The notes under the pieces were generated by a model. It saw only the letters and a list, made by a program, of their open reading frames with translations. It did no database searches and had not been told where the DNA came from. From NCBI GenBank assembly GCA_973895155.1, contig OZ316893.1, positions 25,223,520-25,287,519 of the forward strand: a DNA stretch of 64,000 nt. Reading direction: 5' to 3'. The position numbers and the translations under genes were made by a program. This DNA comes from Marsupella aquatica. Lineage: Eukaryota; Plantae; Marchantiophyta. This document shows positions 1 to 49,300 of this stretch, piece after piece (within the stretch, counting starts at the first letter, position 1; every line of letters begins with the position of its first letter).

Positions 1-110
1 AAGGAAATGCTAGTCACTGTATTAAATAAATGACATGATGGACGTCAAAACAGCTTGGGAACAACGATTGGTTTCTTCCTTTGTTCTAACTATCACGAAT
101 GTTTCTACAG

Positions 111-5267: not shown

Positions 5268-5614
5268 TATGGATACCACTCTATGATATCAACTATTGCT
5301 GCCATATTCAATTGGCCGCCGTCTTATGCAAGGTTTCCTCGAGCATTAATATAGGCAAAAACACTCAAGTAGGGATTAACCTTGCATGTTGTCAGAATCA
5401 AACACAGCTGTGTAGAGGATCGAGGTTACTAAAATAAATTTAAAGTGTTCTCAGAAAAGTAAGAAAAACATTGCTTTGGTCTTCCCAGGACCTGATGGCC
5501 AGTGGGGGTTTAAATCTCACTTGAAATTTTCCCTGTCAATTAGACCTCCTTTACCTTGCACACCCTTCTTGGCAAGAACTTCAAGACTAGTCCTATCATT
5601 CAACGCTAGTGCTA

Positions 5615-5963
5615 CACCTTTCACCTAAATTAGTGTTATGTAAAAATTAGCATTACTATCAAATTAGTGTTCCTCAAAGTAATTTTGGTAAAAAGTGATC
5701 TTAAGTCCAACGTAACACTAATTCTTGGTAGGTTCTTCAATATAGTTTTTTTCCACTTTTGTTTAAAGTGCTAGTTAAATTAGTGATCTTGAGTCCAAAG
5801 TAAGGCTAATTCCTTGTGGATTTTTCAAAATAGTTTTTTCCACATTTTTCTGCTTTTGATACCAGAATAACAGAATTAGTGTGAGTAACAGTAATTCATG
5901 GGTACAACACAAAAATGTCAGTTCTTGAATTAATGTTGGTAACACTAATTACTGTGAACAGTG
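5615..5963. mobile_element. MITE family A, copy 1 (AATTAGTGTT-rich, TA TSD)
   Basis: TA|cacctttcacctaaattagtgtt ... aacactaattactgtgaacagtg|TA. Internal arrays of aattagtgtt/aacactaatt. Homologous along its length to 39187-39571. Confidence 0.8.
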
Positions 5964-16900: not shown

Positions 16901-18232
16901 CATGGCCTGTACAGTATAACTATTGACATGCTTTCCGTGCTTCTGGTGAATTTGGCTCTCAGATAGTCAAGGACAGCTGGCGAGTAGTAAACCACCAGGA
17001 CATTGTTCCGACTGTTCCACGGCTTATGGGATATTGCCACATTGCTCAACCAATCTATCTTACTTCAGAGAAATCCCCAGTGGTGTGTCTGCGTGATGCT
17101 CTAACTTTGAAGAATATTTGAACTGCCTATGTGAACTACTGGTCTTTGTCATACCATAAAGAGGATTCTTTTAGGTTGTGTACTCCGTTCGCTTCCTGAC
17201 ATGTACAAGTTCTTGTCCATCGGAGATATTGTAACGTTAATGTAGCAATTTATGCGAGAGAACGAGAACAGGCACAAGCTTATTCTATTTGGAATTCCCA
17301 ATTAGCTGTGTGTTTCTCCTTGTCATTAGATAACAACGTGCTCCCGCTGTGAAGTCGCCCCTTTCATCAGTTGAGTCGTCAATTATTCTTGTTATACTAA
17401 CTCCTCTATAAAAACCCAATTGTCCTCCGATATTTTGTACGACTTCAGTCGAATCTCTTGGATGATGGCTATAATGGGGATGTAATCGGAGAAGCCACAC
17501 CCGACGTCATCTTAAATGACTTTGTCAGTACCCCCCTTCACCAGTTACAGACCTGTTTTCTTCTTCGCAAACATTTGTGTATGTTGAGTTCCCATTAAGT
17601 GGATGATTGGAGCAATGATTGGAGCTATGCTTGGATCTCTGTAATTTATCGCTGTCTCATTCTGGTTATCATCCTGCTTGGTTTTTTCTCTTACTACTGT
17701 CTCCAAGCCGAAAACCAAGTTAGATCCTGGTGTGAATCTCCTGGATGGGGAAATCCAGTGGTAACCAGTTTGTCCTGGTCTACACAGATGAAAGGAGAGC
17801 AAATAATGCTTCAAAAGTTGCTCCACTCAGAGATTTCAATACTTCGGGCCGTGCGGGATGGAAGTGCATTCATACAACACATGGAAAACTTCTATTACAT
17901 GACATTGTTGCAGGTACACGTTGGGATAAGTACAAATTCGCCTGCTGATTCACATAGGATTTAGCAGCAAGTAAAGTTTTTATATTGTTGTGGTAGCACC
18001 TAGAAACGTTAATTGAGTTTCTGGTATCATTGGGTCTGGAAAGCATCGGTTTACCCGCTTGGCTAAACACATGTTTCTTCTAGACTCTTCCACAGATGTA
18101 TCTTGTGAAATTTCACGCGCTGCTAATACTTCCATGCTACATCAATGACAGCGCTAACTTCAGGGGCTTTTTGTTGAAAATGTGCCTAATGCTTTTTGAT
18201 TTGTGCAGTGTGTCGAATCCAGAGGCAGGTAG
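10966..18232 (+). CDS. C2-domain / class-3 lipase, paralog 2, complete, with probable plastid transit peptide (architecture like Arabidopsis At4g13550/HIL1-type lipases)
   Basis: Exon 1 at 10966-~11349 has an S/R-rich N-terminus then PFDLHLAVLLAGFAFESY. C2-domain exons: GTSDPFVVL (~12685), PVWNEKLTL (~12927), VAAWDAN (~13396), LEGMGGGGRVFLE (~13754). Large exon at 14159-14938. Then VVAFRGTQQ, VHSGF, VTGHSLGA (~16390), YNYGSPRVGN, RVVNHQDIVP, QHMENFYY and last exon 18209-18232 (CVESRGR*). Exon structure is collinear with paralog 1. Confidence 0.9.
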
Positions 18233-21213: not shown

Positions 21214-21910
21214 TGTTGAGCATAGACAACAATTGCAACGGCAAACCCATGAACCATCCAACGTACAAGAGTCGACACAAAGAGATACGTGGTTCACCTC
21301 CACATGAGGCTACATCCACGGGAACACACATGAACTTTACTGCACTCTAGGCCGACTGGCCATACCAAGCATCCACAGCGCAAGCTCTCTCTATTTTGTT
21401 AGATATTGCTCTAGTCTTGTGACTCATGAGCTAACCATAGTTAGTCTAACTTGGGTTAGGATTTGCTAAAGTTAGTGGTAGTGTTGTTGTGTATATAGTC
21501 AGGGCTGATGCCAGACCCTGGTGGAACTTAGGCTCATTGTTACGGAGCTAGTTGAGAGATAGGGAGAGCTTGTGCTATGGATGCTTGGTATGGCCGGTCG
21601 GCCTAGAGTGCAGTAAAGCTCTTGTGTGTTCCCGTGGACGTAGCCTCATGTGGAGGTGAACCACGTATCTCTATGTGTCAACTCTTGTGCGTTGGATGGT
21701 TCATGGGCTTGCCATTGCGAATGTCGTCTATGCTCAACATATCTCTCAACTAGCTCCGTAACAATGAGCCTAAGTAAGTTCCCACTCTCCAAGCAAACAC
21801 AGTTTGGTTATAGAGTGTGCACAACATGACTAACCTAACCAAGTCTACGACTAAGGTTAGCCTTAACTACGGTACAGTCGTAACTCTAGACCTAAGAGTA
21901 AATTCTAACA
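21214..21910. mobile_element. Solo LTR (outer), interrupted by a nested LTR
   Basis: TGTTG...TAACA termini with 5-bp TSD CTAAC (21209-21213 and 21911-21915). Contains the acgtggttcacc motif shared with 40862-41193. Confidence 0.85.
21397..21739 (-). mobile_element. Solo LTR of the same family, inserted in opposite orientation inside the outer LTR
   Basis: TGTTA...CAACA termini; TSD tattt / tatct (1 mismatch) at 21392-21396 and 21740-21744. Its right part is the reverse complement of 21214-~21390. Confidence 0.85.
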
Positions 21911-28077: not shown

Positions 28078-28725
28078 AACATATTGGGATTGGGTCTGAA
28101 AGTACCAGTACTTTAGTTGAAAGTAAAACATATTGGGATTGGGTCTGAAAGTACCAGTACTTTAGTTGCTATATGGTGAATTCATCTTTCATATTTTGTC
28201 TTATTTAGAGTTTTGGTGTCATATATTTTTTATTTCAATGTGCCTTATCAAGGGGCAGCCTGTGTATAATATACATTTTTATTTAATTTATGGACTCCTT
28301 TAATTTTAGGATTTTAGGGTATTTTGAACTTATTTTGGCAGCCCCCTTATAAATTTTAATGTTCCCTTATAAATTTTAATGTTTGTGATTTATCAGAGAT
28401 GAACCAAAAGCTCCACCACTTGAACAAAGTATTCTCATGAGTGAGAGAAAGGGTTCTGATTGTGTCTTAAGTTCCCAAAATGTCTTTCTTTCCTAAGTTT
28501 ATGGTTTTTATTGAAATGAGTGTCATTCTTCATGAGGACATTGAATTAAGTGCAGACATTGTAACACCCTTCATTGTACTTTTCATTGGTCACTGTGCAC
28601 CAATCCTTCTAGTTATGTTCTCATATTTTATTTACTTTCAAATCACTACAAGACAAAAACTCAAACATGTTTGAGGATGAGCATGCTATATTGGGATTGG
28701 GTCTGAAAGTACCAGTACTTTAGTT
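28078..28725. repeat. ~38-bp direct repeat, three copies
   Basis: atattgggattgggtctgaaagtaccagtactttagtt at ~28081, ~28130 and ~28689. Confidence 0.85.
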
Positions 28726-29377: not shown

Positions 29378-30423
29378 GAGATATATGCTTGATGGGCCCC
29401 CTGGTGAACCTTTCTTACCTGATGGGCCCCTAGGTAACTTTTTTTACCAAGTAGGACCCCTCTTAATGACCAGTACACCTGTTCTTGTGTGGTGCCTACA
29501 CTTGACCTTGTATGGTGCCTACTATGTACAATGACTCCAGGCAAATTGCACGGTTTAACAGTGCAGCCGACCCTACATGGTTGACCGAGAAACAACAGAG
29601 ATTATTCGGGAGAAACCGCGAAAAGCGATTGCTGTTGTCGAATCTGTGATTCGAAGACAATATGCATTATGCCTTCAGATTCAACAGGTTAATGCCTGAA
29701 GACACAATGGATTATGTCTTCGGGTCCAAATTTTTACCATATCGTGGGGTAGTTATTAGGTATGTTTTTCACGCTGTGCACATGGGTTTTTCACAATGTT
29801 TTCATGCTCGACTGTCAGCGTCAGTGCGGGGTACCTCCAAATGTCCACAAAGAATATTCAAGATCAATGTTCGGAATTCGCCCACTGCCGCCACAACAAA
29901 AATCGGCAAATGATTGACAAATGTGCTCAAAAAATGGTGATACTCCCCTGTGCAATGCATACAAACAATTTCAAAAGAAGACAAACCTGAAGGTGTCGGG
30001 GTACACCCTAAACCCTAAACCTTGAAACACGGGAAGACATAATCCATTGTGTCTTCAGGCATTAACCCATTGAATCCAAAGACATAATGCATATTGTCTT
30101 CAAATCACAGTTTCAACAGCGGCAGTCGCTTTTTGCGGTTTCTCCCGAATAATCTCCATAGTTTCTCAGTCAACCATGCAAGGTCGGCCGCACGGTTCAA
30201 CCATGCAGTTTGCCTGGAGTCACTGTACATAGTAGGCACCACACAAGGACAGGTGTAGGCACCACACAAGAAGAAGTGTACTGGTCATTAAGAGGGGTCC
30301 TACTTGGTAAAAACAATTACCTAGGGGCCCATCATTAAGAGGGGTCCTACTTGGTAAAAACAATTACCTAGGGGCCCATCAGGTAAGAAAGGTTCATAGG
30401 GGGGCCATCAAGCATATATCTCC
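29378..30423. mobile_element. Non-autonomous Mutator-like (MULE/foldback) element with ~345-bp TIRs
   Basis: Left arm gagatatatgcttgatgggcccc...ggattatgtcttc (29378-~29720) is the reverse complement of the right arm (~30034-30423). 9-bp TSD atttgccac / gtttgccac (29369-29377 and 30424-30432). The right arm carries a ~48-bp internal tandem duplication. Confidence 0.85.
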
Positions 30424-31324
30424 GTTTGCCACCCTTGCAAAAAAGGAAAACTAATATTTATTAAGTTCTCACTCTTTTTTAATCTAAATATAGACTTTGC
30501 CATTATTTCTAGTTTAAGTGCTACATTACCATCTTTTGGGTAAGAAAATCTACATATATAATACTGGATCCCGCCAAAAGTCGTCAATTGTCCCCTTACA
30601 AAATGAGATTTGGTGGGAACATTGGGTCACCATTGGATTTATGTTATCCTTTATTCTCACCTTTGATCAGAATGAGTGTAACCAAAGCAAACAAGACAAT
30701 AAGGTCCCTAGTGTAGGTGGTAACTAGGTGATAATAATTGTGAGTGAACACCTAGCAGGTACTACAGCATAATTTTTTGTCACATATGAATATTTAATAG
30801 TCTATACAATCGTTAGATGTGAAAATAGTTTGTGCTATTGGAAGGAAATAGATGTATAATTAGAAATACTCTCCAGCTAAATGGGTTTAGATGATTTTGA
30901 ACAATATATTTATTAGTGGGAAGGGAAATTTGCAGTTTTTTTTTCTTTCTCAAAAAGCTAAAATTTGATTTTCCCTTTTAATGTATCTTTCATGTAATGA
31001 TAGGGGGAAAGGAGTGTCTCCCATATAATACCCTATTCTACCAAGAAGATGAAATAGTTATTTTCCAAACTCATAAAAAAAATGGGAATCAATCTTAGAC
31101 CTTTATCAAAACATTGTTTTTTTTACACTGTCAGATCTATCCATACACACCATTTCCAATAAATGTCTACCCTAACTACAATTTAGCCTGCCTGCACCTA
31201 CCCAAGATAATAACTTAACTTTAAATAATCAACTTGATTTATATTTAGAAAAATGGGGATAAAATTTTTAATTTTTTTAAATGGAATGTAAATAAAGCAC
31301 CAAAAATGCTTATTTCTCTACAAA

Positions 31325-31979
31325 TTGAAAACCTTCATTAAAAAACACATTTTTTACTGTCACTTGGTTAGACTCTATGATGCGGTGGTCGCTATCTTGC
31401 TTCTCCAATTTTTATGTGCAACACGAGTTACAAAACAACCACAACAAGAATTTGCACCAATACCAACAACTACATGTCAAAGCTCTTTTATATGTCTCCT
31501 TAGCATCTTTTTTCACTTGCACATACTTTTCTAACTTTTACATATGTATTGCTTTTCAACATCTTTTTCTCATTTCGCCATTTTTCTCACATTCACATCT
31601 TTACCTCACCATGACATTTTTTCCTCACTTGACATATTTTCTCCCCTCGGTATCTTTTTCTCTCCTCCACATCTTCTCTCACCTTGACATCTTTATCTCA
31701 CTGCGACATCTTTCCCTTATGCTCAACATTTCTTTCCTCAACATATTTTCCTCATTTTTACATTTTTTTTCACTTTGCCATCATTTCTCTCCCCAACAAT
31801 TTTTCTTCACCTCGACTTCTTTTTCTCTCATCGACGTATTTTTTCATCTCAACACCCTTTCCTCACCTCAACTTCTTTTTCCCTCCTCAACTTCCTTTTT
31901 TCTCATCGACATCTTTTTTTATCATAACATCTTTTCCTCACCTCAACATCTTTTGTGCAACGCACAGGCATGGGGCTAG
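31325..31979 (+). mobile_element. 3' part of a non-autonomous Helitron, with pyrimidine-rich low-complexity interior; 5' end uncertain
   Basis: Hairpin tgtgc-aac-gcaca (31954-31966) followed 9 nt later by CTAG|T (31976-31980), the canonical Helitron 3' terminus. Start coordinate is approximate; a possible 5' end is A|TCTAAATATAG at ~30483. Confidence 0.6.
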
Positions 31980-32928
31980 TGAACTATAATTAGCTTGAAA
32001 TAATTCAATAGTCAACAGGTTTCACCATTGGATGGTAGTCCATGTTCTCTACCCTAACCACAGCACCCTTCCGAACCTTGGCATTGGGTTGGGTCTCTTA
32101 CTCGAATATAGGAAAGCTCGAAGGGGTCGCCTGAAAACTGTGGGCGTCGGGAGGCGGATGTCTCGGGCTCGGCTCTTGAGCTGGGGCTGGGGCAGAGCCT
32201 CCCCTTGTTGCCGACCTGATCTTCTTCTTTTGGTTGGTTAGCTCACTCCTGGTTGAGGGTGAGAGAGGTTGAGCTGAACTTGACGGCAAAGATGATCTCA
32301 TTGATGATGAAAAACTTCCAAGATGTTCACCATTGGATTGTTCTAAACAAACCAGGGTTGCTTTGCTTAACCAGTGTTAAAAAGGTGGCAATGTTGTGAC
32401 AAAACTGAAAAGAGAGGCAATATAATAGGGCATGTCAAACCAACTTTTTCCAGATATTTTCTGTCAGCTGTTACAAGAAGATATTGTGTGTGACCCTGAC
32501 CAAAACCCAACTTGTGGGCAAACTTAATCCAAGGGGTTCATGGTTTGAGATGGGTCACAACACCTGCCCACATCATTGTTGTTTTCTGAATACTTTTTTT
32601 GGTTTTAAGGGGAAATCAGTGAAACCCCACAAAAGGGAGGCAACAACAATCAGTTTGAACCCAAGATCGATGATTGAGTCCCTACTCAAGTGAGCTACCA
32701 CTCAGCCATGTCTGCTTTGGCACATCATTGTTACTTTGATGAAGGGCGCCAACACATTAGCGGTGGACTGATTTATTGTAGGGGCGCCTGTGCAATGATC
32801 ACCCGAGTTAGTGACAATAGCATTCTTTCAAAAACCACTGACACATTTTTTACCATCACCATCCCAGTCAAGGGGGATCTTGTGGAGCAGGTTTGAGGCA
32901 CCCTAAGAGGTGTCTCACCCCTGTGAGT

Positions 32929-33186
32929 TTTGCCTCCTGTCTCGGTCAAGGTAGATTTCCCAAACCTACAGTGACGGACACGAAAAAGCTTCTCCACACA
33001 CTCATGACCGAAGACCAGAACTGGTACTTTTGGGCCAAATAGGTGTCTCAAACCATGAAGTTTGCGGGAAACAAATTTGGCCTCATACCACCAGTTCCAG
33101 TCTCTTGTCAGGAGTGTGCGGACATGCATTTTCATGTCCGCCACCTTTTTCCCGGGAATTTGCTTGACCGTGACCCGAGGCAGAAA
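32929..33186. mobile_element. Possible degenerate MITE (imperfect ~33-bp inverted repeats)
   Basis: tttgcctcctgtctcggtcaaggtagatttccc pairs imperfectly with gggaatttgcttgaccgtgacccgaggcagaa. No clear TSD. Confidence 0.4.
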
Positions 33187-34990
33187 GAAAATATTTGAGA
33201 TGCCCTAATATAACCAGTATGTGGGTCCAGCTGGGATTTTCTACCACCATGCATGTCTATCATTGTTTAAGTACCCTCTCCATTAGAACATTGCCTTATC
33301 ACAACACTGCCCACAACATTGCCAAAAGAATTACATAGAAATTCATATATATATATATTTATATATATATATTTATTTTAATGTGTCAAGTGAACAGTTG
33401 CAACCCTTCAATTAATAAATTTTTGATTCATAGAAAGAGTAAGTCAGGTTTCATTTACTTATTCTCTTTTTCCCACATTGATTGATTGATCTTCAGCATC
33501 TTCCTATGCAAATCAAGGTATGCCCATCAATAATCTTCCAAATGTCTGAAAATTATGGATGTTGATTGAACATATCATGATGGATGTGTGCCTTGCTCAG
33601 TCCAGAAAATATGACTGACTTGATTTTGAATTTGTTTATTGACTTCATTATTGTTTATGTGGGAGTTGAGAGACAAATGTGGCTTCATTGGTCCTGAACC
33701 TTTGGCGGTTATGACTGGATTGACTAACAATGCTCATGGTGGAATATTGGTTGGTATTTTGCAGAGCTTCTCAATTTGCTGAGGTTGTTGATAATATTAG
33801 AGATGTTGCTAACAAGATTACATCTGATCGAAAGCTATTTGTGGGGACTCTTCTTCACAAGCTTTGTGTGATGTGACTGTAATTAAATAGGTGTTAATAA
33901 ACATTGTTTGAGAGTGGACCAAAAATGAACAATCCTTTCTTTTGTTGGTCTGAATTTTGGAGATTTGAGGGCTAGTTTCAATTGGATTCGTACCCTCACA
34001 TTTTCTTCAGGTTCTATCGATAAGAAAAGTATCTTTGCACTAGTCATGCTTCCCTAGAATATACCTTTATTCTCACTATGAGGCCCCTCAAGAAAGAACT
34101 CATTTTTGTTGGCTGCATGCTTTGGGCAGGGATATTAATTAGGGCGTGGGAAGATGTGAGGGTTTAGATGAAATAAATGTTCTAGATGAGGAGAATACCC
34201 TTCTATTAATAGATGTTTGCACCTCTCAGGAAATTATGAATCAAAAATGTCACAACTTAAGGCATTCTGATACACACATCCACAAGGGTCGGTGTATTGT
34301 TTGACCCCAATTGTGACCTTAACATCAATAAATTGCAAACTGTTGTCATTTCAAATAAAATTATCATTTCTATCAGCTGGACTCTACAATTGGCATTACT
34401 TGTTTTGTGGGTACAAATAACATTTGAGGAAGGTGAGTATTGGGATTAATTTAGGGTTAAGATGGGACAACATTTCCTGGATGGCCATAATCATAAAGGT
34501 TAGCAAAGTAATTTCATTGTTAATTTACACTCAGGCTGTGTGGTATATTGTAGACTATCTTTCAACTTTTGCTTTACAATTTGATTGGCATTTTGGGCTT
34601 TGTTTGCCTATTGTGCCCCCCTTCCAAAATAGTAATTATTTTTTTCTAAATATTTGCAAAAGGCCTGAACAAATGAGTCAAGATATGGTTGGGTTTTAGT
34701 CAACCCACCATTTCTTTGTTAACATGTTTTAGACAAACCCATATGTACTATCCAATTGCTCACCTGGCCTCCTTAATTTGTGTGTGAGGGCTCTTCCCAT
34801 CTTTGCTAGCCTACTAACGCCATCCAATTCAACCATAAAAGAGCTTTGGACGAAAGTTTTCTCTAACCTGCTCCCCAAACTGATATACGCAAACAATATT
34901 CAGAACCAACATTGTACATCTATGGGGGCTTTTCTTCAGGGTTCCAAGAACACTAGAGAAAATTAGACTCCATATTCCTATATATAACAT

Positions 34991-35270
34991 TGACAAGATG
35001 CTTAGATGGGCTCATAAAACCAGATTATCAGGGTTCTATGATTCCATAGGGGCATCTTGTCAACCTTTGTGTCTATGAGTGATAATCCACTCATCAAACT
35101 ATGCTCTTTAACACAATTTATAATTTCTATACTTACTTTTGACAAGATGCTTACATGGACTCATAGCACCAAATTTTCCCCGTGCTGCGATTCCATGGGG
35201 GCATGTTGTCAAACCTTTGTGTCGATGGGTGATAATACACACATCAAACTATGCTCCATAGCACAATTTA
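34991..35270. repeat. ~149-bp period diverged tandem duplication
   Basis: tgacaagatgctta.atgg.ctcata...catcaaactatgctc..ta.cacaattta at ~34991 and ~35140. Confidence 0.8.
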
Positions 35271-38200
35271 GGGGTATTTGGTTGCCCGTTTGGTTGATGG
35301 CCCCCCAAAAGAAAAGTGTTGCTCCATAGTACCCCTGAGTGATCCAAACCCTTGATTGACCATGATAGAGTTTCAATCAATGTTCCCCAAAACTCAAGAG
35401 TCCTATCAAGTAACATTGTTCTCTTGACAGAGGGCCTTTGTGTTATTGTTGGGTCCGATTGTGCCCATCAGAGTTTCCAGAACCATTCTTTAGGTCTATG
35501 AGGGCTTTTCTCTAGGGTTTCGAGATCCAGAAACTCCTTCTCAGGAATCTGAGCAGCCGTATCTTTTCTTGATTTTGTGCTCGATTTTTGCTATTCCTTG
35601 TTTTTGTGTTTGCTTCATTGAAATTGGAGCTCATTGTTCTCTTCATGGTCTACTACTGCACTATCTAAATTTTCTGTAGTTCGTTTGTTATAAAGTTTGC
35701 GCCTCAAGTGTCTGTGGAATCTCCATTGAATTCCGGTATTGACTAGAGCAGAATCATCACCGCCGGTTTCAAGGGGATTATGCTGACCGTGCCTTTCAAC
35801 TTTCAATGGAAAAGCGGGCTGACCTATAGCCTACATCGTGCGCCTATAGTCATACACCCTACAAGCAAACTCTATAAGTTTTGTCTCGTACTGTGAGAAT
35901 ACTGCTCTGTATCAATTGTATGATTGTGCGAAGAGCATTTTTGGAATGGAATGATCCATCAAAAAGTTATTGGATGGTTGAAAGTCTACCTTCCTGCGCT
36001 ACATCTCTACGATGCACCAACATAGGGTTCACTCAAACCTATAGTTGTCATCCTACTCTTTTTTATGATTATCCTCAAGTCCAGTGGAAAAGGGAGGGCT
36101 ATTGTTCTTCTCGGGCTATCCTATCGGGAATCCTAATTGGAAATCTATGATCCATGCAATTGATCAAAATCTACTATTGACAAGTTTAAGACCGATTTCA
36201 GCCTCGACGCAATGAACCTCAATCTCCTTGTTGTACGCTTTATATAATATATCGTTTTGTGGTTTTAACTTTACGACTAGCTTCCATTGGCTCCCGTTGA
36301 ATTCCAGTAGATCCTTAGTGGAAATTTGTCTAACGTGTGGACAATTGAATCTCTATGTTTCCTCACACCTCCAGTGTCTGAACTTCCTATATGTTTGATC
36401 GGTGTTGCTGCTCCGGGTGCTGCTCCCTCAACGGATGAGAGTGCTAATATTTCTGACTGTGCAGTGCTATCTGGACTGCATCTGAGCTATCTCCGACAGT
36501 CCTCAAATTATTTTTGACTCGAAGTCTAGCCCTGAATATAAGTTGAACTTGCATGTGAGTATCACTTATTCGAGAGTACCTAGTGCGTTAGTTAGGGTCG
36601 AAAGTCAGTGCCTTCAAATTAAATGGCTTGGAAACTTAAGAACCTGGCAAGGTATTCCCAATACAGAATCTAATGACATAGACTCATATTTCAAAAAGTT
36701 GTTGTTGATTGTTTCCGAAGTGACTTCATTCATAAGTGAATGAAATTAAACATCGCTTGAAACGGTGTTGGAATACTATGTCATTGGAGTGACATAATTG
36801 AACTTAATTTAACACCAGTTGACCAGCTCTGCTGTACCTGTTGCACAACACTTACCTAGGTGCACAGTTTCCGCCATCAACTAATAATTTTGAATTGATA
36901 GCAACTGTGGATAGTCCTGGCTTGTGAGAGGCTGTCAGCTTTCCAATGAACCATGTGTGACCAACTTAGCAGAATTGCAGAAAGAGTACATATATTACCC
37001 GCGATGGAAGAGGATTTGCCGCTCATTACAGTTAGTTTGGGATCAAGGGAATGACAAATGGTCATGGAGGGTTCAATCAGTAGTGCTTACTTACGCATAC
37101 ATAAGGCCTTTCCAATTACTTGCAGCAGGCAAGGGTTTACTGCTTGTGAAAGGGTTCATGTAATTGTTTGTGCTACTTACTTAAGTTCTCTTCAAAGCAC
37201 CGTCTTCACGCCCAATTGGGATCAGAGCACTCTCTGGTCAATCGTTTGTGTTTATTGCCCAGGTAAACAGCTACAGTAGTGACTGTAGCTAGCTACTGAA
37301 TGTCTTTATACAGTAGAGTTAACTAGAATTTTTCTCGCTCAATAGAGTGGCTCCATAGAAATTGTCAACCAGCATATATTGCAGTAGTGTGAACATCAGA
37401 GAACATTAGACAGCGGCAATGCCGTCTGGGAAAACATCTCTTCAATTCTCCTTTAGTGAGCACCGATCCTGTACAGTCAAGTGCATTCCGGCGACCGTCC
37501 ACTTTAGCAACCTGCTCAACTTCCCGTTGGAAGCCATTGCTGGGAAGGAGAACAAAATCACGTCATACGGTCCGAAAAGAGTACTGCTTGGGAGCTTCAA
37601 ATTGGCAAACACGCTATAAATCCTGATCGCTTTGCTGTCATCGAACTGTTTGTTTGGGGAGCAGGTTAATGAATATGCACTAGAGTTTTGCATATATGCG
37701 GTTTGAATATCGCACCTGGCTACACTAGAGGAAGACAACAAAATATGATTGAGCTAAGATTTGGCATACACCTTTGTGACAGGTAGCTGCACTAGGGGAT
37801 GACAACAAAACGTGGTTGAAGCTAAGGCTTGGCATGCATACACCTATATTACAGGTATTTGCATGTGTATCAGTCAAGGGATGCTTTATCGTGCAGTTTG
37901 AGTTTCTTGTGGTCAATAGTACATTGACTAGGGCTTTGAAGAAGGGCTCTCTGCTAAGGAAGAGAGAGGAAGTGTCCATGGCAGTGTACTCACAGCCATT
38001 GCAATAGGCATTAATTTTGTATGTCTTTTATATCCCGTTCAATCCATCCTTGGTTGTGTGGTCTATGGAAAATAACCTAACCTTTTTTGGGTATCATGTT
38101 TCTAAGTTTTTTGTGTTATCCACTTGCAGATTGTGGACAACCTTGAAAGTTGGAACTTTATGAGAGGAAATAGACCTTTTGCTACGAGGCACATTTACTC

Positions 38201-38289
38201 TTCTCCTTCATACAAACAGCGCCAAGAAAGTAAGTATATCATGAGCCCCCCGTTGGAGAAGAAAGTCTTGTCCTTGAAATAACAAAATA

Positions 38290-38620
38290 CATGTTTGAAA
38301 AAATTCTAAAACTTAGTTACAAATCAAGGCATTTTGGTACACACATCCGAAAGGGTCAGTGTACTGTTTGACCTCAGTTGTAACTTTACAAACCTAAAAA
38401 ATATGTTTGAAAAAACTATGAAAAGTTACAAACTAAGGCATTCCGGTACACACATCCAAAAGGGTCGGTGTACTGTTTGACCCGAGTTGTAACTTTACAA
38501 ACCTAAAAATATATGTTTGAATTTTTTTTTAAACTTACAAATTAAAGCATTCTTGTACACACATCTGTAAAAGTTGGCGTCTTGTTTGACCCAAGTTGTA
38601 ACTTTATGAACTTAATAATT
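38290..38620. repeat. ~110-118-bp minisatellite, ~3 copies, inside the putative intron of the dioxygenase gene
   Basis: gcatt..ggtacacacatc..aaagggtc.gtgtactgtttgacc..agttgtaacttta at ~38328, ~38437 and ~38547. Confidence 0.85.
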
Positions 38621-39186
38621 TTTGTTTTCTTGCAGATGGTCAAACGAAAAAAAACTCACCTGATTGAAAATAAATGTGAAGCATGGGAAGATGATTTCTC
38701 TGTTAATTTATTTGTTCAAATTTGGGTATACTTGAGAAAATTGCACCTTGGAAAAGAAAGGCACTGTATTGGATTCTAAGAGACGAAAAAGTTCTTGTAC
38801 TTTTTGTTACAAAAGTACTCAATATCACGCTCAATAGATCCTCAAAGTTTTCCAAAGCTATACTTTGGAATGGGTAATAATAAAAATTGCAAGGAAAGAC
38901 AAAATGAAGTTCCTGTGTTCTGTCCGGATACATGGAAAGAAATTGATGAATTTTTTCCAATCATCAATGTAGGTTGAACTTACCAAAACCCATACGTCAG
39001 TTCATTGGAATGTTTTCTCACTATACTCAAAGAAAACTTCAAACTATGAGAAAAGTTCAAGAAACCTCTTGTGCTACAAGTAGTTTTTTTTTTCTAAAGT
39101 AGAAGTAACTGCCCATCGTATCTCTTCCTCTCGTGTTGCACATTACAAAGGGTGCATCCTTGGAACATGGAATGGTAAGAAGACTA

Positions 39187-39571
39187 CACTGTTCACCGTA
39201 ATTAGTGTTATGCAAGAATTAGTGTTAGTAAAAAATTAGTGTTACTAACACTAATTTTGGTAAAAATGATTTTGAGTCCAAGTAACACTAATTTTTGTCG
39301 GTTTTCAAAACGAATTTTTTTCAGTTTAGTTTAAATTGCTTGTAAAAAATGGATGATCTCTAGTCCAAAGTAACACTAATTGTTGTGGATTTTTTTTACT
39401 AGTTTTTTTCTTTGTATTTTGCCACTTTTAAGACCATAGTAACACTAATTCATGTGCGTGAAAATAGTGTTAGCACAAAATTAGTGTGACTAACACTAAT
39501 TCGTGAGTAGACCCTGAAAATGGGCACTCTCGAATTAGTGTTAGTCACACTAATTACGGTGAATGTCAGTG
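39187..39571. mobile_element. MITE family A, copy 2 (TA TSD), inserted in the dioxygenase coding region
   Basis: TA|cactgttcaccgtaattagtgtt ... acactaattacggtgaa(tgt)cagtg|TA; same family as 5615-5963. Confidence 0.88.
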
Positions 39572-40545
39572 TAGTTCTTCCTCTGCTAATGCTGGGTTTA
39601 TATTTAGGGACTTCCCTAATGATTTTGTGGTTATGGACAAAACCCATAACTGTACATATTTTTACGATAGGTCAGGATCCAAGCCTTATCTTATAGCAGT
39701 GGTTGTACGCCACCAAAAACTATCATGTGAAACTATGAGTTTCATTCGAAGTTTATTAGTTTCCTTATTTGATTCACATTACGAGATTAAAAGGGGAAAA
39801 AACAAGGCATCATTCGAGAGTTACATGACAAGATTTGGTCCTTTTGATAATCCATACAAGTCCAAAAGAGTATCTTTTTATACTCACAAAACAAAAATCA
39901 GGCATCTCTTAGCAGACTGTGCACCATCCATGACTTCCGCTTTTGAGGATTTAGTTGATAAGTACTCTCATCTTGAGCTTGTCAACATCATTTTGGCTCT
40001 CTAGATGTGGTGGTGCCCTACAGTGTTGGAAAGTTATTTCAAATACTCCCACCCATCTCTTGCTCCTGAAGACCACGATATGTCATTTTTTGAGAAAGAA
40101 TTGGAAAGTAAAGGGCCAAGCTCTTATCAACTTTACATCAGCAAAGATTTCTGCACCAAAATGCACAAAGATGAAGACATGGCAGAGTTTACATTATGTT
40201 ATGCTAGTCATCCAGATTCAACAATTTTGCCAATCGATTTTGTGATTCCTGAATATGGAATGCATCTGGGAATTGAAGATGGCAACCTCTTTGCTTTCCG
40301 TAGTGATATTGTACATGGCACGGCATACAGGAGCTCAACTAGTAATGCCGCTTATGTAGGTGCTCTTACGATAAATAAAAAACTGGATAGATTGTTACAA
40401 AGGAATCATAGAAATACTTAAATTTGTTAGATTGTACATCCACTTATAAATCTTTCAAAAATGATTTCTTTGTAGTCTCTAGTAGTGATCATCAAAACTT
40501 AACATTGCTAGACCTTTACAAATGATTAAAAACATTTTTTTCAGT

Positions 40546-42335
40546 CTATTTTGCACTACATTTTTGACAACTTCTATTCTTAACTATTTGATAAACATCC
40601 CAAAGCTCTTCCAAAAGTTCCATACAAGCCTCTTCTTCCTGGAATGTTGGCTTGAAAAACATTTTCAGCAACCGATCATATTTCCATCGATACATGGCTT
40701 TTCCTTCACAACCTCCGCTGACTAGCCCACTACGATGAATTCTTGGATTGTCTATGCATTCAGTTTGAGTACTAGTATTCATGCTGTAAATAGTCATAAC
40801 ACTATTATCACATGAACTGCAACTAGACTCTTCACCTGAAACACATTTAAATTAATAGTCCTGTTGAACTAAGACGTCATTCGCAACGACCATACAACCA
40901 TGACTCATTCCATGCACACGTAGTCGACACAATCTCTACGTGGTTCACCTCTTCTCCAAGGCTACGTCCACACGAACACTCAAGCTTTACTTCAAGAGTA
41001 GACGAACACACATGCTCTTCCTCTTCCTCAAGTTGCTCCGTTACAATGAGTTAGCACCACTCACCAGCGGCTTACACTAGCCCTGGTATATACAAGGTCA
41101 CACACGACTAACCTAACCTCAGCTAAGACCCTAACTGTGGTTAGCCTAAGTGCCGTAACCTTTGAGTCACAAGACTAAGAGCAATCCTTAACAAGTCCAA
41201 TCAAATTCACACTACTACTCAAAATGCAGTAATCTAGATTGTCTCACAAAGATATAATTGTCATAGTCACTATTCACTCAAGCAATTACTTTTTTTGTCA
41301 ACTAATCAGTCATGTACTTAAAAGGTAGTACAATATAGTGTGGTGAAATTTTTTTGTGTGCTGATCTCCACAAATTAAAGTAGCAAATAGTCTCACGCTT
41401 ATGATAGCATCCACATAACACTACATGTAGTTAAAACGTATATGTTCTATGTACATTTACGTTTTCCTGGAGATACTTCTATCTTAATACTTCCAGGAAA
41501 GCTAGAAGTAGCACCATCATCAAACAAAGAACGCTTAGGAATATCTCGTAATCCACCTGCATCTCGTTCGTTGTTCATTCGAGCAATGACTTTCCCTGCC
41601 TGGTTTGCTGTCAAATTGACCAAAATGTCCACAGGTACTTTGAATGAATGACGTAGCTGTCTCAACTGATCTATCGCTGCTCCTCTTGTATGACATTTCA
41701 GTAATTTCATGCTCTCTTTCCTTGTTAGTGTTTCATTATCAAATGAAACATGTTTGTAACGTAGACATTCTTTTACAATGCCTGCACACAAGTCCAGATG
41801 TACATAAGAATCACACAATATATAATCTAGTAAAAAGAATTTGCCATGTATATATAGCTAAACAATTTAGAAAGTAAGATTCATACCAGATGCCGGATAC
41901 TCTCCATGCATATCCAAAAACATTTGTTGCCATTCCTTTTTAGCATCAATGAGAAGACTCATGCCCTTCACACTTATACCACCTTCCCATCTCTGTTATC
42001 TCTATCCCCAATGAATCTGCATAGCTAATTTGTTTTGGTGTAGGCTCCTTCATTGGTTCCTCCCCTTTATCTTCTGTGTCTTCATCCTTGATATCAACAA
42101 GGATCATTCGTAAAAACTCTTCGACTGTCGGGGTTCCATGTTCTGTTGCCGTTGCTCTTACTTTCACTTCAGGTGACAATTCAGATGCCAAGTTGATTGG
42201 AGATTGTTGTGTACCATTTCCGTAATTGAAAACAACATTCTCAGTTGCTTTCAAGTTCTCTGTGTTGTGCAAATTCCTCTTCGGTGCCATTTCAAAAGAT
42301 CTGCACATGTCATTCCCCAACTTACTACATCTCAT
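40546..42335 (-). pseudogene. Fragmented ORF(s) of unknown function directly downstream of the Helitron helicase
   Basis: Co-oriented ORF pieces at 41946-42335, 41447-41818 and 40546-40797 with protein-like composition and Cys/His clusters (WYKCEGHESSH, CDSYVHLDLC, CQKC). The first overlaps the helicase stop by ATGA. No recognisable domain. Confidence 0.4.
40862..41193. mobile_element. Solo LTR (332 bp), related to the LTRs at 21.2-21.9 kb
   Basis: TGTTG...TAACA termini with perfect 5-bp TSD AGTCC (40857-40861 and 41194-41198). Shares gtcgacacaa, acgtggttcacctc and gagtcacaagacta motifs. Confidence 0.88.
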
Positions 42336-43613
42336 TCTCTGTAGACAGTAACATCCAAAGGAGATAACTTACCCATAATTTTTAAATTCTTCCTATTTGT
42401 AACACGACTCAACATCACATATGTTAGACCAGGAGCAAACGCTTCAGTTAGCACAACCAGAACTTTTCCAGTTAAAGTACTTCCTTGTGATTTATGTCCA
42501 ATCATCGAATATCCTAACATTAGTGGAAATGTTGACTTCTGGTAACTAATCATGTTCTTGATTCTTTTGTATTTAGTACAAGATCTCACAACTCTTACTA
42601 GTTTGCCGTTACTATGTAGTTTAACAATTATTGTAGACAAGTCATTCTCATCAAAAAGCAAATCATGTACTTCTCCACTACTACCGTTAGCAGCTTCATT
42701 TGAAATATCAATATTCTGAGCAGTCAATAAAACTCTACAACCAATAGCTATATGTGTTAGTTGATGAAACTTTGGGTCAGAGATCCATTGCTTTGACCAC
42801 TCTCGACAGGAGCATTTGTATGGACATTAACTTCTACTATATGATCTATAGGAAAAAAATTTAGTAAACACATTGTATTATATTTAGCCACTTTATCTCT
42901 ATGCGAACAAATAATTGTAGTATTCTCGTCAACAAATCTGTATCCTTCTTGTTCAGAGACAAAACATTGTTGCAGGCAGTCGTCTATTGCATGCTGACTA
43001 GGATTAGTTAGACGGATAGAATTTAAGAAAGCTAAGAATTGAGGGTCAGATGCTTGACGAATAACAGATGTCAAGTGATACCGCTGCATATGTTTGTATA
43101 ATGAATACGAAGATAAATGACACTGAGTACATATATACTCAGTTTCATGATTACACACAGGAGGCAATTGACACATATCTCCTACCAGAACAATTAGCTT
43201 CACTGTAAATGGATCATTTCCGCGATCGTTACCTTGAAGAACTTCATGCAATCGTGAAGCTATGCTTTTCATGATTTTTGGTGTAAGCATGCTACATTCA
43301 TCAATAACTATAACATGAGAAGAAGCCAAAGAATCAAAAATACTATTACTTCTATGCAACGGTAATAAAGCTCCTCTAATTGGTATTTTGAATGCATGAT
43401 GGACAATCGTTGCCGAAGCATCTAGTCTAATTGCATCAACTGCTGTAGTGGATGTTAAAAGCACGTTCTTCCCTTGTTGCTCCCAATAGCTCTTCATAAA
43501 ACCCATAAAAAAGGTTTTACCTGTTCCCGGGGAACCTGTAATCATATGTAGACCACTCTTTTGAGATTTCAGTTTCAAGAACACTTCTGACTGATCTAGC
43601 TTCAATGACAAAA
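42332..43613 (-). pseudogene. Helitron PIF1-family (SF1B) helicase domain, frameshifted
   Basis: Walker A ITGSPGTGKT, Walker B IVIDECSML, LVGDMCQLPPV, LTSVIRQASDPQFLAFLNSIR, FPLMLGYSMIGHKSQGSTL and GLTYVMLSRV. Frameshift near 42730-42790. Confidence 0.92.
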
Positions 43614-45265
43614 ACTTACATATTAGATAAAGAGTATAATACACTTAGAAGCGTTAAACCAGACCTAACAGAAGAGGAAATTTTCTGATTAATGATAAAG
43701 CATAATATATCATGCTCAGTCCCGGGTAGTCCAGGTTGGCACAGTCGTCATTTGAAGGACCTGATGTGCATGGTTCAGTACTGGGGTTTGCCTTCTTTTT
43801 TCCTCACTCTTACTTGTGATGAAGTGAGCCCTACTAGATGGGTAGAGATTGATGACCTAGAGAAAGTTGTAAAGTGTATCAATGCAACCTCAACATGGAA
43901 AGATTGTCCTGTAGAGTGTGCAATGATATTCCATACCCGTGTTCAAAGTTTTCTTAGAAAGTACATTCTCTGCGGTGAAAATGGTGTCTTAGGAAAAGTG
44001 GAACATTACATTGCCCGGTATGAATGCCAAGGTAGGAACTCTTTGCATGCACACATTCCGCTTTGGTGTACTTTAGATGATGTAGATAGGGTCAGTAGTG
44101 AGATCTGTGCATACATTCCAGCTCATTTTGATGATAGTCCTGGTAAGTTTACTGAACAGTTTGATAACCCGATGACTAAATTATTGTATGGATATGTCAC
44201 TTCAAAGCAACTGCATCGTTGCAAGGAAGGAGTGTGTATTCATACTGATAGCGATACCGGTTTATGATATTGTAAAATGAGTTTTCCGCATGAACCGCAC
44301 ATGGAGAAGAGTCCTTCTATTGACCCTCGAAGCGAAACATGGCGATATTTTCGTCCAGGAGTGGAACACAGAAATGTTGTTCCATATCATCCTGTCATTT
44401 TATCATTGTGGGGTGCCCATATGAACCTCCAAAGAGTGACAAATGAAGCATGGTCTTTCTACCTACTTAAATATGCTATCAAATGTGAACCAATGGGTTC
44501 ATTGAATATTAATCTTGAAAATGCTAAGTCTTTAGGATTAGATGCATTGAGTGATACCCAGTTAAAGTTGGTTTCCAGTGTTGTTCTGTCAAGACCTATT
44601 TCTTCTATAGAAGCAGCACTAACGTGTTTACAAATTTCTACTATACATAGATCGTCATCGGTCACTCTTGTGGATTCCTCTCCACCAGATAGACGTACTT
44701 CTCTATATCGAAAAGCTTCGGTAGTCTGTCTTCACCCTACCCAGGTATATGCTTTGAGACCTTTGAGGTTAGGAAACTTGTCATTCTATGAGTATTTTCG
44801 GAATTATGAAGTGTTGCCTGAGAAAAGTAGAGAAACAGATTTTGTGGATGTGGACTTTCAAGGGAACTATGTGTTCACTACTACTAAGTTGGTACGCTTT
44901 TCAGACTTTCACCCTGTGTACCATTCTAATCAGTTTTTTTATAATGTTCTTCTTAGACATGTACTTTTCGGTCTGAAGTTGAGCTATTGCTTAGGACAGA
45001 TTCTGATTGGACATATCTCCATGAATGTGTGTATCGGAAATTAATTAGTTGTGATAAGGATATAGAAAACCTGATATGTGATTACGCAGATAAACACCTA
45101 TACTCTTCTCTGTACAAAGCAGAGATGATTGTAAAAATTAAGAGTCGTATTCCACCCACATTGTGGGATGAATCATTTGCAGGTCCTTATGTAGCTTTGA
45201 ATAGATCTTTAAGACAGTCTGGAGTTCAGACAACTACCATTAGACCACAACACTTGTCTTTAAGT
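43614..45265 (+). pseudogene. Helitron Rep (HUH endonuclease) domain, inverted relative to the rest of RepHel
   Basis: PGSPGW; motif 1 GLPSFFLTLTC; motif 2 RYECQGRNSL-HAH-IPLW; RNVVPYHP..LSLWGAHMNLQ; motif 3 FYLLKYAIKCE. In-frame stops at ~43686 and ~44265, frameshift at ~44970. Confidence 0.92.
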
Positions 45266-46381
45266 GATTTTACTTTGACTTGTGAGCTGTATCGACTGTT
45301 GTAGTTGGTAACTAATAAGCATATATGGTTTGTACAACGTAAATGGACTAAACAATTGTTGAGTTCTTCTCTTAATATACTCAGCAAATGTTATACCACC
45401 GCGGTAATGACCATGTTGATAAGTGAATAAAAATGGAAACATTGTTGTCTCCAATGTCACATCCTGGTCTTCAGACACACCGTCCCCGTTAGTCACCATT
45501 GGCTCTCTTAGTAATAAAGCATTCTTACAGTGCAGGTTTCCAGACTCAAAAAGATCATACTTACGCTTCCTAGATACAGGTATTGAATATGACACATCAT
45601 GAAGTATTTGAATATCTGGATCATATAGATTGACTGTCATAGAATAAGTTGCAATCCCTTTTTCTCTTTGCTTTTCTAAGATATTCTGCACTGCATCAGG
45701 TGTTAGAATACAAACTCCAAGTGAAGGATCCGGCGTTTCAAGCAGATAGAAATATCTTTTAAATAGTTTGTTAACAAGCAAGTTAGTCGCAAACACCTCG
45801 TAAACCTGATTCATAATCATACCAATATTATTACACTGTAATGTATCCAGATTCCAACAAATAAGCGGACTATCTAGTAAGCTCTCGTTGCGTACAAAAC
45901 CTGAATGAAACCCATTAAACTTGTTTATTATCCCCAATCGACAATCTATTAAAGATAAGAGTTGTAGATACAAGGGTTTTGCTTTTAGAATAGACCGAAT
46001 ATATGAAGGTGACATGAAGGATAATAGACTTCCTCTATCTCTATCCTTTACACAAGCCATGCATATATTGCAATGCATGTTATCAACGTGTATGTAAGGT
46101 ATTAGAAATGCATTACAATATGCATACGGAGCTACTCCTGTACTATCTACACGCACAATTTCAAACAATTTTCGTTCTAAGTTATTTCCATAACATACAA
46201 ATCCACAATTCCCACAGACTTTCATGTTCTGAATGGTTTTCTGACATAGGCCCTTCCATTCTCTACATAAGATATCAACATTCAGCCAATGCCTTGCAGA
46301 CGGTCTAGTTGAATTCCTTTGCAGATTAAATGTTCGTTGTCGCGCAATTTCCCGACGTAGGTTTAATGAACGTAAAGACAT
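45266..46381 (-). pseudogene. Helitron RepHel N-terminal region (Cys-rich putative Zn-binding segment plus pre-Rep region)
   Basis: 373-aa ORF with VCGNCGFVC and CNICMAC motifs, plus LETTMFPFLFTYQHGHY...TFAEYIKRR, typical of the region preceding Helitron Rep. It joins in frame to the inverted Rep at the ACTTA junction. Confidence 0.8.
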
Positions 46382-49300
46382 AGCTTATAGAGAATATTTA
46401 CCTCTCACCAATCTGTCGCAAAAATGCAAAGCTCAGGAATGTTGATCGTAGCGTGCCAACAGCTCAAGATCTTGCACTAAACACGATAGATAAATCTGCA
46501 TTGTGACATGTAAAGTAACCCATATCAATGACAGACAAAAATGATCAAGTGACCCACAAAGCAAAGTAGTCCAGAACTTAACATAGAATCAAACATCGTC
46601 AATTGTGCATAAAAGTTAGACACTTACTTTGTCAAATGCATCAAACATAGACTGAAGTGGCCAACTTATACTCAGTCAGTCCACTTGAACTGTGCGAGCA
46701 TGCCTTGGATACCCGTTCGAACACCTAACACATCTTATCTACCTACATAATAGTAAATCTACTTACACAACAAATCCAACTAATTCATCCATATATGGCG
46801 GCGCTTTATAATTGTCTTTGTTGGGTATAATTGTCTGTGGTGGGTTGTTCAAAGACCAAAAAAAAAGCATTAGTTAAACATTACGCTTCGCTTATTTAAT
46901 GTTTTCACGCACCTTCACAATAAGGCTACTTGAAGGTGTTATGCATGTCTCATAAATACAAAGATAAAGGTACAATAACAAACTCATCAATAGACAAAGA
47001 ATCTATCAAAATATGGCGGCGTAACATAGCCGAGTTCATTGACACATATTGGACACAACCTAATTGTAATTTCACAAGCAATAATTATCACTTTGCGCGT
47101 GGCAAGTGGCATCAACCCCACACGCGTTACAATTCTCGCACGCCTTATCGGTCAAACACACATTACATTTTTTGTACAAGTAAAACCTGTCCATTGATTA
47201 CGGACTAAACCACGTTACACAGTGCTGACCATTGATAAAACACTATCAATGGTTCTAAATAAATTCTTGTCACATTTTTGCCTTATGTACTATCCAAGTT
47301 TATATTAGAATTTGGCACCATAAAACATGTATCATTTGTGCATAGAAACGATCAATATTCTTCATGCTAGTCACACGTGTGTTCTCAACCATCACACGAG
47401 TGACAACCCACGTTGCACGATCTACACCATCGATAAATAAAATCCAACGAACATGAATTGCCTGGTGATGTGTAATTTTCTTGTTATTTATAAATTTACA
47501 AGAGTCTCTAACTGGACCCGTAAATATCACCCCCCCAAAAAAAAGCCTTGAAAATTGCCCATGCTCCATTACTCCATCATTCATCGTAGCTCCCCCAAGA
47601 GGCGGAGAGATTCATACTTTGGCGCCGGTCACCCCACCGAAACTACCGGGTATCAACCGTAAAGTCCGGTAGAGAACAGGGCTGTCCTTTACATCCGCTA
47701 GAACGCAAAAGCGACCTTTGAGGTCCTCGGGGAAAGAAACCCTCCCTTTCTCTTTCCGCCATTCGCGTGTCTTTCGCTCCCCCCTCTTTCCAGTCCCTTC
47801 CCTTCTACGTTCGCCCTCGTCGTGGCCCAGTATAGCGTAGGGGCGCATTTGGTACTGTAGCCATTCTCCGTGACCGAGGAGCGAGAGGTTGCTCGCGGAT
47901 TGAATACGGCATTCGTTTGCGCCCACAATTGTCGATTGGATTCTCTCGAAGGAGGACGATTTTCCTAACAATCGTGCTGGGCATATCATTGATTCACTTC
48001 CTGTGCAGTTAGGTCTTCGTCCTTCTGCGGAGAAATTATAACTCGGCGGACGAAAAGGTCACCGCATTGTACTGCTGGTGCAGCGGAAGTGGTGTTCACT
48101 GTGAAGAGCGCTTTTTTCGTTTCTAGTCTCGTTTCGTGTGGTCTCGTTTCGTGTGGTCTCTCGTCGTGCCTGATCCGACGAGGGGAGTGAGCGAAGATAG
48201 TTTAGTTCAAGGATTTTCTTCATGCTTTTTGCTGACTGCAAAAGGCGGAGGAGCAGATTGGGGAGTGGCGAGGAGGACGCGGGAGGCCTAGTACTGCTGC
48301 ATGTCGTGGAGGAGGACGGAGGTAGGAAAGGGTCGTGGAATCGGAGTTGGCGCAGTGCAGCCGGGAGAACAGAGGGATGTTCGTAGAGTAGAGCAGAGGA
48401 GCTTGATGATCAGGTTGCTGCCTTGTGAAAGGCTGGTTCGGTTGTCGCCGGTTGCGCCACTGGGATTCGGGCACGAGGTCGGGCTTCCTCGGCTGTGTAG
48501 TGGCCGTTATTTTCAGGTCTGATATCCTCTGATCAGGTTTTCTCCGGTCCTCAGAAATTCTGCACACGATTAGAGCCACAGCACGAACTAGAAAAAGAGG
48601 AAATTCGATACTTGTGTGCCTCCCTGCCCGCCTGCCTACCTGGAGAGTTGCCGAGAGAGAATGTCCATCAGAATGTAGGTTTTGAGAATTGAGGGGTGCC
48701 TAGGCCATTCGTTCGAACCTAGTAAGCGGCTCTTGCGACGGAAGTTCTGTTTAGGCGAATACATTGTCGTCCCAATACAAAATCACGTAGGAGGAGAAAG
48801 AAAGCAAGAAAGAAAAACAGCCCATTGTTCTTTATCAAGTCTGTTTGAATATATTGCCACGAAACAGGAAATGTTTGAGCTTGTGCTATATTACACTAAG
48901 GAGCCTGGCAACAAAAAATTTGGTCATGAAGAGAATAATACTGGTCTGCAGTATTTCGTGTCCAAATTGTCATTCTTCTGAAGCTACAGAGGAACAGGGC
49001 GCTGTAGTCGTGGGACGTTGAATGCCGCGGACAAGACTAAAAACTTAGCGCTTTTCACAATGTTACTGTCGCAGGTCCGTTGCCGAGAAAATTGAGGTCC
49101 CATCTAACACTGCGTTTGGCTCCTTGACAGGTTTCAAAGCTTACACCACGACGACCTCTCACTCTCAGGTGAATCCTCTGCAGTGGGCCATCCTTTACTT
49201 TGGGCTTGAAGGGCATGATGAAGCAAGAGGTCTTGTTCTCCATCCTCTACTCGTCCATTGTAAAGAATCACCTGCTGAATTTATCTTTTTGCTACCTTGT

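Follow-up and report, generated by a model that had tools for sequence, protein, structure and literature searches.

Helitrons that carry genes of the TET/JBP family of DNA-modifying dioxygenases are known from fungi, where TET-bearing Helitron1 and Helitron2 elements occur in rusts, Pezizales and Agaricales and an escape from silencing has been proposed without experiment (Kojima 2025, PMC12730594). In Chlamydomonas, according to a preprint, most of the at least ten TET/JBP genes lie in two Helitron2 families, and CMD1 lies in another transposon (bioRxiv 10.1101/2022.06.16.496473). Active demethylation in plants has been described as glycosylase-based (PMC11065753), and the question of whether enzymes of the CMD1 type exist outside a few green algae was raised in a 2024 review (PMC11066809). 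Here we describe a locus of Marsupella aquatica (Marchantiophyta), in a 64,000-nucleotide stretch of contig OZ316893.1 (the window), at which a TET/JBP-type dioxygenase gene and the RepHel gene of a Helitron are arranged convergently, and we conclude that the dioxygenase was probably carried by a land-plant Helitron that has multiplied recently. The initial annotation of the window knew of no such pairing; the fungal and algal elements show this to have been wrong, and what is new is the host lineage, a land plant, and the HxDxD, Arg-less variant of the enzyme. Literature searches of incomplete coverage returned no paper on a TET-bearing Helitron from a land plant.

Structure and decay of the dioxygenase gene

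The long exon of the dioxygenase gene (38636..40421, + strand), delimited by tblastn of relatives, runs from ATG to stop, would count about 465 codons if the ancestral frame were restored, and encodes a basic N-terminus. Over 270 amino acids it is 48% identical to P0002, an intact relative of 456 amino acids found by word-based protein search. The start previously given for the gene, 38131, is not that of the long coding exon; it falls in a small upstream exon (38130..38229, +), either coding or untranslated, whose AG and GT splice signals were read directly. Three repeats of about 110 bp occupy the intron (38284..38627), and a fourth copy lies at 34245-34321. On re-reading, HKD (40164), PEYG (40248), HGT (40314), a premature TAG (40002..40004, +) and the end of the dioxygenase stop codon (40421) were all found where they had been placed.

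This copy of the gene is broken by the premature TAG, at whose place P0002 has Tyr, by four small indels (38760, 38876, 38948 and 39084) that are visible against sibling contigs, and by a miniature inverted-repeat transposable element (MITE; 39187..39571) with CACTG...CAGTG ends and a TA duplication. The sibling contigs come from public runs, six of which (X1 to X6) contain the region; five were compared as contigs, and X3 for the left part only. Siblings without the MITE, in X2 and X4, share the joint 39184-39572, and the insertion that had been proposed for removal (39187-39573) is thereby upheld. With the sibling indel states adopted and the MITE removed, the long exon retains one stop.

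Family and fold of the dioxygenase

Word-based searches retrieved 1, 1 and 4 proteins, and a full HMMER scan with P0002 returned 46 representatives at E<=0.001, 10 of them at 1e-30. The ten clusters that were looked up, labelled 'hypothetical' or without a name, are encoded on short contigs (1-4 kb) that originate in Logan, ENA or JGI, and none has an NCBI or UniRef record; no related dioxygenase locus was present in viral or JGI contigs. We aligned P0002 with 37 of the 46 relatives and two unchanged stretches of the window, excluding nine fragments or N-terminal-only matches; the tallies given here count the rows with a residue at the column, and one misaligned row (P0020) was kept in. In P0002 numbering, Arg253 (39792..39794 in the window) is invariant in 16 of 16 rows and is a candidate counterpart of TET2 Arg1261 and CMD1 Arg244. 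The stretch HKDED (40164..40178) holds the Fe-binding HxD and a second Asp that may read the N4 of cytosine, with His376 kept in 29/30 rows, Asp378 in 28/30 and Asp380 in 27/30, and HGT (40314..40322) holds the distal Fe-binding His426 (24/24) and Thr428 (20/24). Because the relatives keep the first His, the Asp and the distal His in this way, the motif set in the window is, on these alignments, not a chance arrangement, and the HxD...H iron triad extends across the family. In a 22-row tree the window protein falls into no supported group. P0046, on a long branch, appears to be a distant member that keeps R-x-T on the last strand, and is a possible 2-oxoglutarate (2OG)-using outgroup.

The assignment to the TET/JBP type rests on a structural model of P0002, which was predicted from the family alignment with a mean predicted local distance difference test (pLDDT) of 77.6 and a predicted TM-score of 0.82, against a pLDDT of 35 from the single sequence. 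In three structure searches the model best matches TET2, CMD1, CcTet and NgTET1 (Z 14.9-11.6 across searches), and we are therefore highly confident that the predicted dioxygenase has the TET/JBP fold. Foldseek placed five CMD1 entries at the top (E 6e-7 to 8e-6); CcTet and TET2 came next, and FTO and AlkB followed from 3e-4. By VIA-align, TET2 (Z 14.9, 249 residues aligned, root-mean-square deviation (rmsd) 4.1) and CMD1 (Z 14.1, 246-254 aligned, rmsd 3.8-4.0) were tied, followed by CcTet (Z 13.3, 256 aligned, rmsd 4.5), NgTET1 (Z 11.8, 211 aligned) and AlkB (Z 11.8, 170 aligned, rmsd 3.2). A search of 48,161 chains, independent of Foldseek, returned TET2, CMD1, CcTet and NgTET1 as ranks 1-4, so that the comparison proposed in the initial annotation, with NgTET1, CcTet and CMD1, placed all three above the 2OG oxygenases that do not act on nucleic acids. 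The model shows the double-stranded beta-helix and the N-terminal extension of TET/JBP proteins. Its own N-terminal helical domain (15-146) found no usable match in the atlas, and the fold search barely probed it.

A 2OG-type oxygenase that acts on small molecules or on proteins would share the HxD...H motif, which is common to the whole superfamily, and prolyl hydroxylases do reach Z about 11. They align over 167-186 residues, however, as against 203-256 for TET/JBP proteins, and the feature search and phage structures also favour TET/JBP: the best named viral model match was a phage JBP1/TET protein (E 2e-6), and the feature search returned fungal clusters without a name (0.96), together with clusters in which 16% of the members carry Tet_JBP or 15% carry 2OG-FeII_Oxy_6. 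We consider such an oxygenase highly improbable here. Several observations nonetheless weigh against the TET/JBP assignment. The structure was modelled for P0002, a 48%-identical relative, and not for the window protein itself. The profile comparison with Tet_JBP that had been suggested came out only in part, since neither the window protein nor P0002 has any Pfam match and the relatives give weak ones (Tet_JBP in 2/40 aligned members and 2OG-FeII_Oxy_6 in 4/40, best E 3e-4). Sequence searches of the PDB gave no TET match; a DNA polymerase matched at E 0.07 and USP16 at E 0.003, and both were dismissed as chance.

Active site and candidate co-substrate

The last core strand (40344..40376) carries no Arg in the window protein. 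Its register, taken from the range ends of the structure alignments with TET2, NgTET1 and most CMD1 entries rather than from residue-level superposition, and assuming a gap-free end, puts Ala438 at the place of the distal 2OG-binding Arg, Thr444 at that of the stacking aromatic and Asn446 at that of the base-reading His/Arg. The initial annotation had remarked that the 2OG-binding Arg expected after the distal His was not clearly placed; its absence is real and family-wide, with Arg in 0/24 rows at the inferred column, so that the canonical arrangement of 2OG-dependent TETs is missing. Near that column an Arg occurs one position off in P0046 and three positions off in two other rows. Another Arg, five residues beyond the distal His, is conserved in 18/23 rows and could in principle substitute for the distal one. 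On the same inferred register none of 23 rows has an aromatic residue at column 444, which again speaks against a TET-like pocket, and the second Asp, as placed by alignment and not by superposition, stands at +4 rather than +5 in most rows.

A candidate parallel for this pocket is CMD1 (PDB 7CY4-7CY8), the top Foldseek match, which is itself transposon-borne (bioRxiv 10.1101/2022.06.16.496473) and also has no usable distal Arg. In CMD1 (PMC7854593, the source of the CMD1 numbering used here), Trp358 stands where the 2OG-binding Arg would be and blocks the pocket, and ascorbate is used. By spacing only, the family has Tyr at the place of Trp358 in 24/29 rows (40200..40202 in the window, 12 residues after the first His); of the ascorbate-binding Thr residues, Thr337 has its counterpart in a Thr or Ser in 23/27 and Thr399 in a Thr in 20/24. 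The two enzymes differ in other respects: identity is 13-17%, and Arg410, Phe416, Arg418, Ser335 and Ser414 of CMD1 appear here as Ala, Thr, Asn, Tyr/Phe and Ala/Cys/Gly, so that the equivalents of the two serines are not kept in the family. TET2, NgTET1 and CcTet share with the modelled protein the extended fold, the Fe triad and the candidate first Arg; the modelled protein differs from them in having no zinc-binding inserts and in its N-terminal helical domain, and TET2 and NgTET1 keep the distal Arg and the stacking aromatic (PMC7854593).

With no distal Arg and, by spacing, an aromatic residue where it would sit, the enzyme probably does not use 2-oxoglutarate held in the TET manner. The leading candidate for the co-substrate, by analogy with CMD1, is ascorbate, as a lead and not a result. 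The fungal Helitron-borne proteins suggest that the odd pocket extends beyond this family. Read by eye and not directly aligned, 11 rows of Table S1 of PMC12730594 show in the PE type one aromatic residue at +8 and another at +12 from the first His (the latter in 5/6), a YG.R strand and HGT, as here, with Gln in place of the distal Arg in the 4 rows reaching that strand; in the PU type, 3/5 rows end in INKK and 3/5 lack the distal Arg. The family described here differs from the PE type, whose hallmark is HxE (PMC12730594), in having HxD (Asp in 28/30), and in its land-plant host. As judged from these rows, in which the Arg is frequently absent and the PE aromatic stands at the same spacing, the odd pocket is a trait common to transposon-borne TETs.

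The Helitron and its relation to the dioxygenase

The presence of a RepHel gene, reported in the initial annotation, is borne out by profile matches. Its C-terminal part (42332..43597, - strand) is a PIF1 helicase (PF05970, E 9e-24) with no endonuclease after it, its N-terminal part (45285..46384, -) is Cys-rich and matches related RepHels, and its middle (43598..45284), the HUH Rep (PF14214, Helitron_like_N, E 7e-23), is inverted onto the + strand in this copy, which the initial annotation had overlooked. The un-inverted joint is present in contigs of X2, X4 and X5 (depth 281, 220 and 3.5), related RepHels are colinear and the frames fit; with the inversion undone, RepHel comprises 1350 codons, interrupted by two stops and by three shifts of frame. 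The fusion of an HUH Rep with a PIF1 helicase identifies the element as a Helitron. Arg and Ser mark Helentron Reps (PMC4067079), and judged by this IARYECQGRNSLHAH has the Arg before Rep motif 2 and the Ser in RG(S)xHxH that are diagnostic of Helentron/Helitron2; the two residues preceding that Arg do not fit the Helentron pattern. Both genes are decayed, as had been described, and the window copy of the pair is dead.

Both genes lie in an approximate low-copy repeated unit (33140..47650, -), presumably the Helitron itself, which is bounded by single-copy contigs at 33136 (31956-33136, X1) and 47646 (47646-47994, X4). Upstream of the RepHel frame the unit continues for about 1.2 kb to its right edge, much like the distance of about 1 kb in a related family. 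Contig depth within the unit is above that of the flanks in X1 (65 at 34364-34600 versus 18-20.5), X3 and X4. In X4, near-identical contigs at the 5' end of the dioxygenase (38044-38333), in the intervening open reading frame (ORF; 41461-41832) and at the 3' end of RepHel (42298-42604) have depths of 343, 341.5 and 347, about three times those of the flanks (101-131); the contigs point to some three nearly identical copies for the two genes alike. In X6, from another organism, the catalytic exon and RepHel are covered at at least 80%, and 34602-36203 and 41544-42077 are not.

We judge it probable that the dioxygenase and RepHel belong to the same mobile unit. The cargo status that the initial annotation left unproven remains so, and is now favoured by the equal multiplicity of both genes and by the want of a 3' end between them: a Helitron terminus at 40421-42332, named there as the finding that would part the two genes, did not appear, no hairpin-CTRR|T being found on the - strand between them. 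Alternatively, the dioxygenase may belong to another transposon or a small segmental duplication that merely adjoins the Helitron. Fungal TET genes do switch transposon superfamilies (PMC12730594), and contigs of the MITE-free dioxygenase (joint depth 763 in X2 and 598 in X4) are deeper than those of the un-inverted RepHel, so that some copies may lack RepHel, although internal deletion derivatives would likewise yield more copies of the dioxygenase than of RepHel. Near-identical contigs, however, have the same depth on the two genes as in the DNA that separates them, single-copy DNA bounds the unit soon upstream of RepHel, and the layout is compact and convergent, with stops 125 bp apart. All of this argues against separate units, which we regard as unlikely.

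Other evidence tells against a shared unit and has to be set beside this. Contig depth is not copy number, the contig coverage examined in X2 was 57%, and X5 gave no clear excess (1.9-21.6 inside, 4.4-5 outside). No contig among those of the public runs spans both genes, and terminus searches found neither an end nor an empty site for the element, as the initial annotation had also reported, which leaves room for separate units. The recurrence of the pair that had been looked for did not appear, since 0/21 related Rep loci carry the dioxygenase; these loci are 34-51% identical, many are redundant and only six extend more than 2.5 kb past the RepHel match. In one of these families, which has no cargo, a hairpin-CTAG|T end follows RepHel at a distance of about 0.8 kb, and because of this the cargo is, as far as these loci indicate, not clade-wide.

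Canonical Helitron1 ends (5' TC, 3' hairpin-CTRR, A|T target) were nowhere convincing on the - strand, and the ends may have decayed; a search for Helentron subterminal inverted repeats gave only a 13/14 match (34242 / 47280, E 3). Shuffles predict 0.8 matches of the hairpin-CTRR|T type per 15-kb strand. Two candidates for the 3' end were discarded: the hairpin-CTAG|T at 37928 (-), which is bridged by X2 and X4 contigs, and CTGG|T at 33214, where a stable hairpin is absent. At 47369-47402, in a higher-copy patch, a hairpin followed by CTAG on the - strand is either the 5' hairpin of the element or the end of another small Helitron. The related family with ends is represented by L016:6409-6950, L018:9887-10428 and L020:13607-13945, with a Rep of the Helentron-like clade and a hairpin 2 nucleotides before CTAG|T; in L016 and L018 a fragment resembling leucine-rich repeats (LRR) overlaps the Helitron end.

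That LRR-like fragment illustrates that Helitrons capture host DNA, and the dioxygenase could have been a host gene captured passively by read-through, with no gain to the element; the quick decay of the window copy would fit. Yet the lack of NCBI or UniRef records for the clusters looked up is unlike an ordinary plant gene, the sibling contigs without the indels and the MITE keep the frame open apart from one stop, and the same cargo recurs in unrelated Helitrons (PMC12730594; bioRxiv 10.1101/2022.06.16.496473). Passive capture thus seems improbable.

Among described elements, the fungal PE and PU TET-Helitrons (PMC12730594) likewise combine a Helitron with a TET/JBP gene, at 8-15 kb. Helitron2-2_cRei and Helitron2-3_cRei of Chlamydomonas, likened here by description only, are green-lineage Helitrons with TET/JBP genes, and the window Rep is likewise of Helentron type without endonuclease; they differ in their algal host and in Helitron2 termini, which were not found in the window.

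Substrate and possible benefit to the element

If RepHel and the dioxygenase are parts of one Helitron of about 14 kb, intact copies would produce an enzyme whose basic N-terminus suggests entry into the nucleus. There the invariant Arg and the second Asp would form a pocket that takes up a flipped cytosine, whose 5-methyl group would be attacked at the HxD...H iron, and the resulting oxidation of methylcytosine in DNA would be likely to blunt host silencing. That the substrate is 5-methylcytosine (5mC) in DNA seems fairly probable, and that the element benefits through anti-silencing may or may not be the case in about equal measure.

A TET/JBP-type cargo enzyme might instead act on another base (thymine, N6-methyladenine (6mA) or RNA) or write a mark rather than relieve silencing. 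The apparent replacement of the stacking aromatic and the His/Arg reader by Thr and Asn, together with the second Asp at +4, would allow this, and characterised relatives are diverse, CcTet acting on 6mA, JBP on thymine and CMD1 producing 5-glycerylmethylcytosine (5gmC) (PMC12730594; PMC7854593). An Asp in this position, however, reads cytosine N4 and disfavours thymine in CMD1 (PMC7854593), and 5mC is what silences land-plant transposons (PMC11065753). We consider a different substrate or role distinctly unlikely. Taken as a whole, the best explanation, to which we give an even chance, is that the dead RepHel and the TET/JBP-type gene come from one Helitron in which methylcytosine oxidation would have blunted silencing.

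Neighbouring features

Between the two genes lies a decayed spliced ORF of no recognised family (40546..42290, -), about 40 bp past the RepHel stop and 125 bp short of the dioxygenase stop, for which a Pfam scan gave nothing below E 0.07. The solo long terminal repeat (LTR) reported there was confirmed at 40862..41192, with TG...CA ends and a 5-bp duplication; it is missing from one sibling contig (X2, joint 40832-41194, depth 125). At 35878-37625 (+), within the repeated unit, several decayed open frames resemble exons of a further cargo gene; three of them, scanned over 35878-37160, had no credible Pfam match.

The genes named earlier as flanking the locus keep their identities by best match, THO complex subunit 3 (THO3; one exon only) on one side and Arabidopsis HYL1 (E 1e-19) on the other. 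Run X1 has zero differences from the window flanks at one depth, which would fit a haploid bryophyte. A separate non-autonomous Helitron with CT-rich tandem repeats occupies 31100-31980 (+) and ends in hairpin-CTAG|T at 31980, where each run has 50-136 loose-ended contigs. High-copy elements lie at 29378-30422 (about 1 kb, with 300-bp inverted arms), 32423-33210 (a TA-flanked MITE) and 28167-28691 (a sharp-ended repeat). A second copy from the TA-MITE family, along with sequences related to the solo LTR, is found at 5612-5966 and 21213-21739. Two alike genes in tandem (90-4137 and 14066-17964), the first with a GHSLGG motif, are presumably lipase-like.

Conclusions

The window copy itself does nothing, and what matters is the multi-copy land-plant TET/JBP family to which it belongs, whose siblings look open and which offers a concrete enzyme and a concrete genome for oxidised or glycerylated cytosine. 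A bolder proposal, tentative and rather unlikely, is that recently active land-plant Helitrons may carry their own TET/JBP enzyme, without the 2OG-binding Arg and using ascorbate, whose siblings would write 5gmC or another oxidised cytosine and so escape silencing. If true, the anti-silencing role proposed for the TETs of fungal transposons would extend to land plants.

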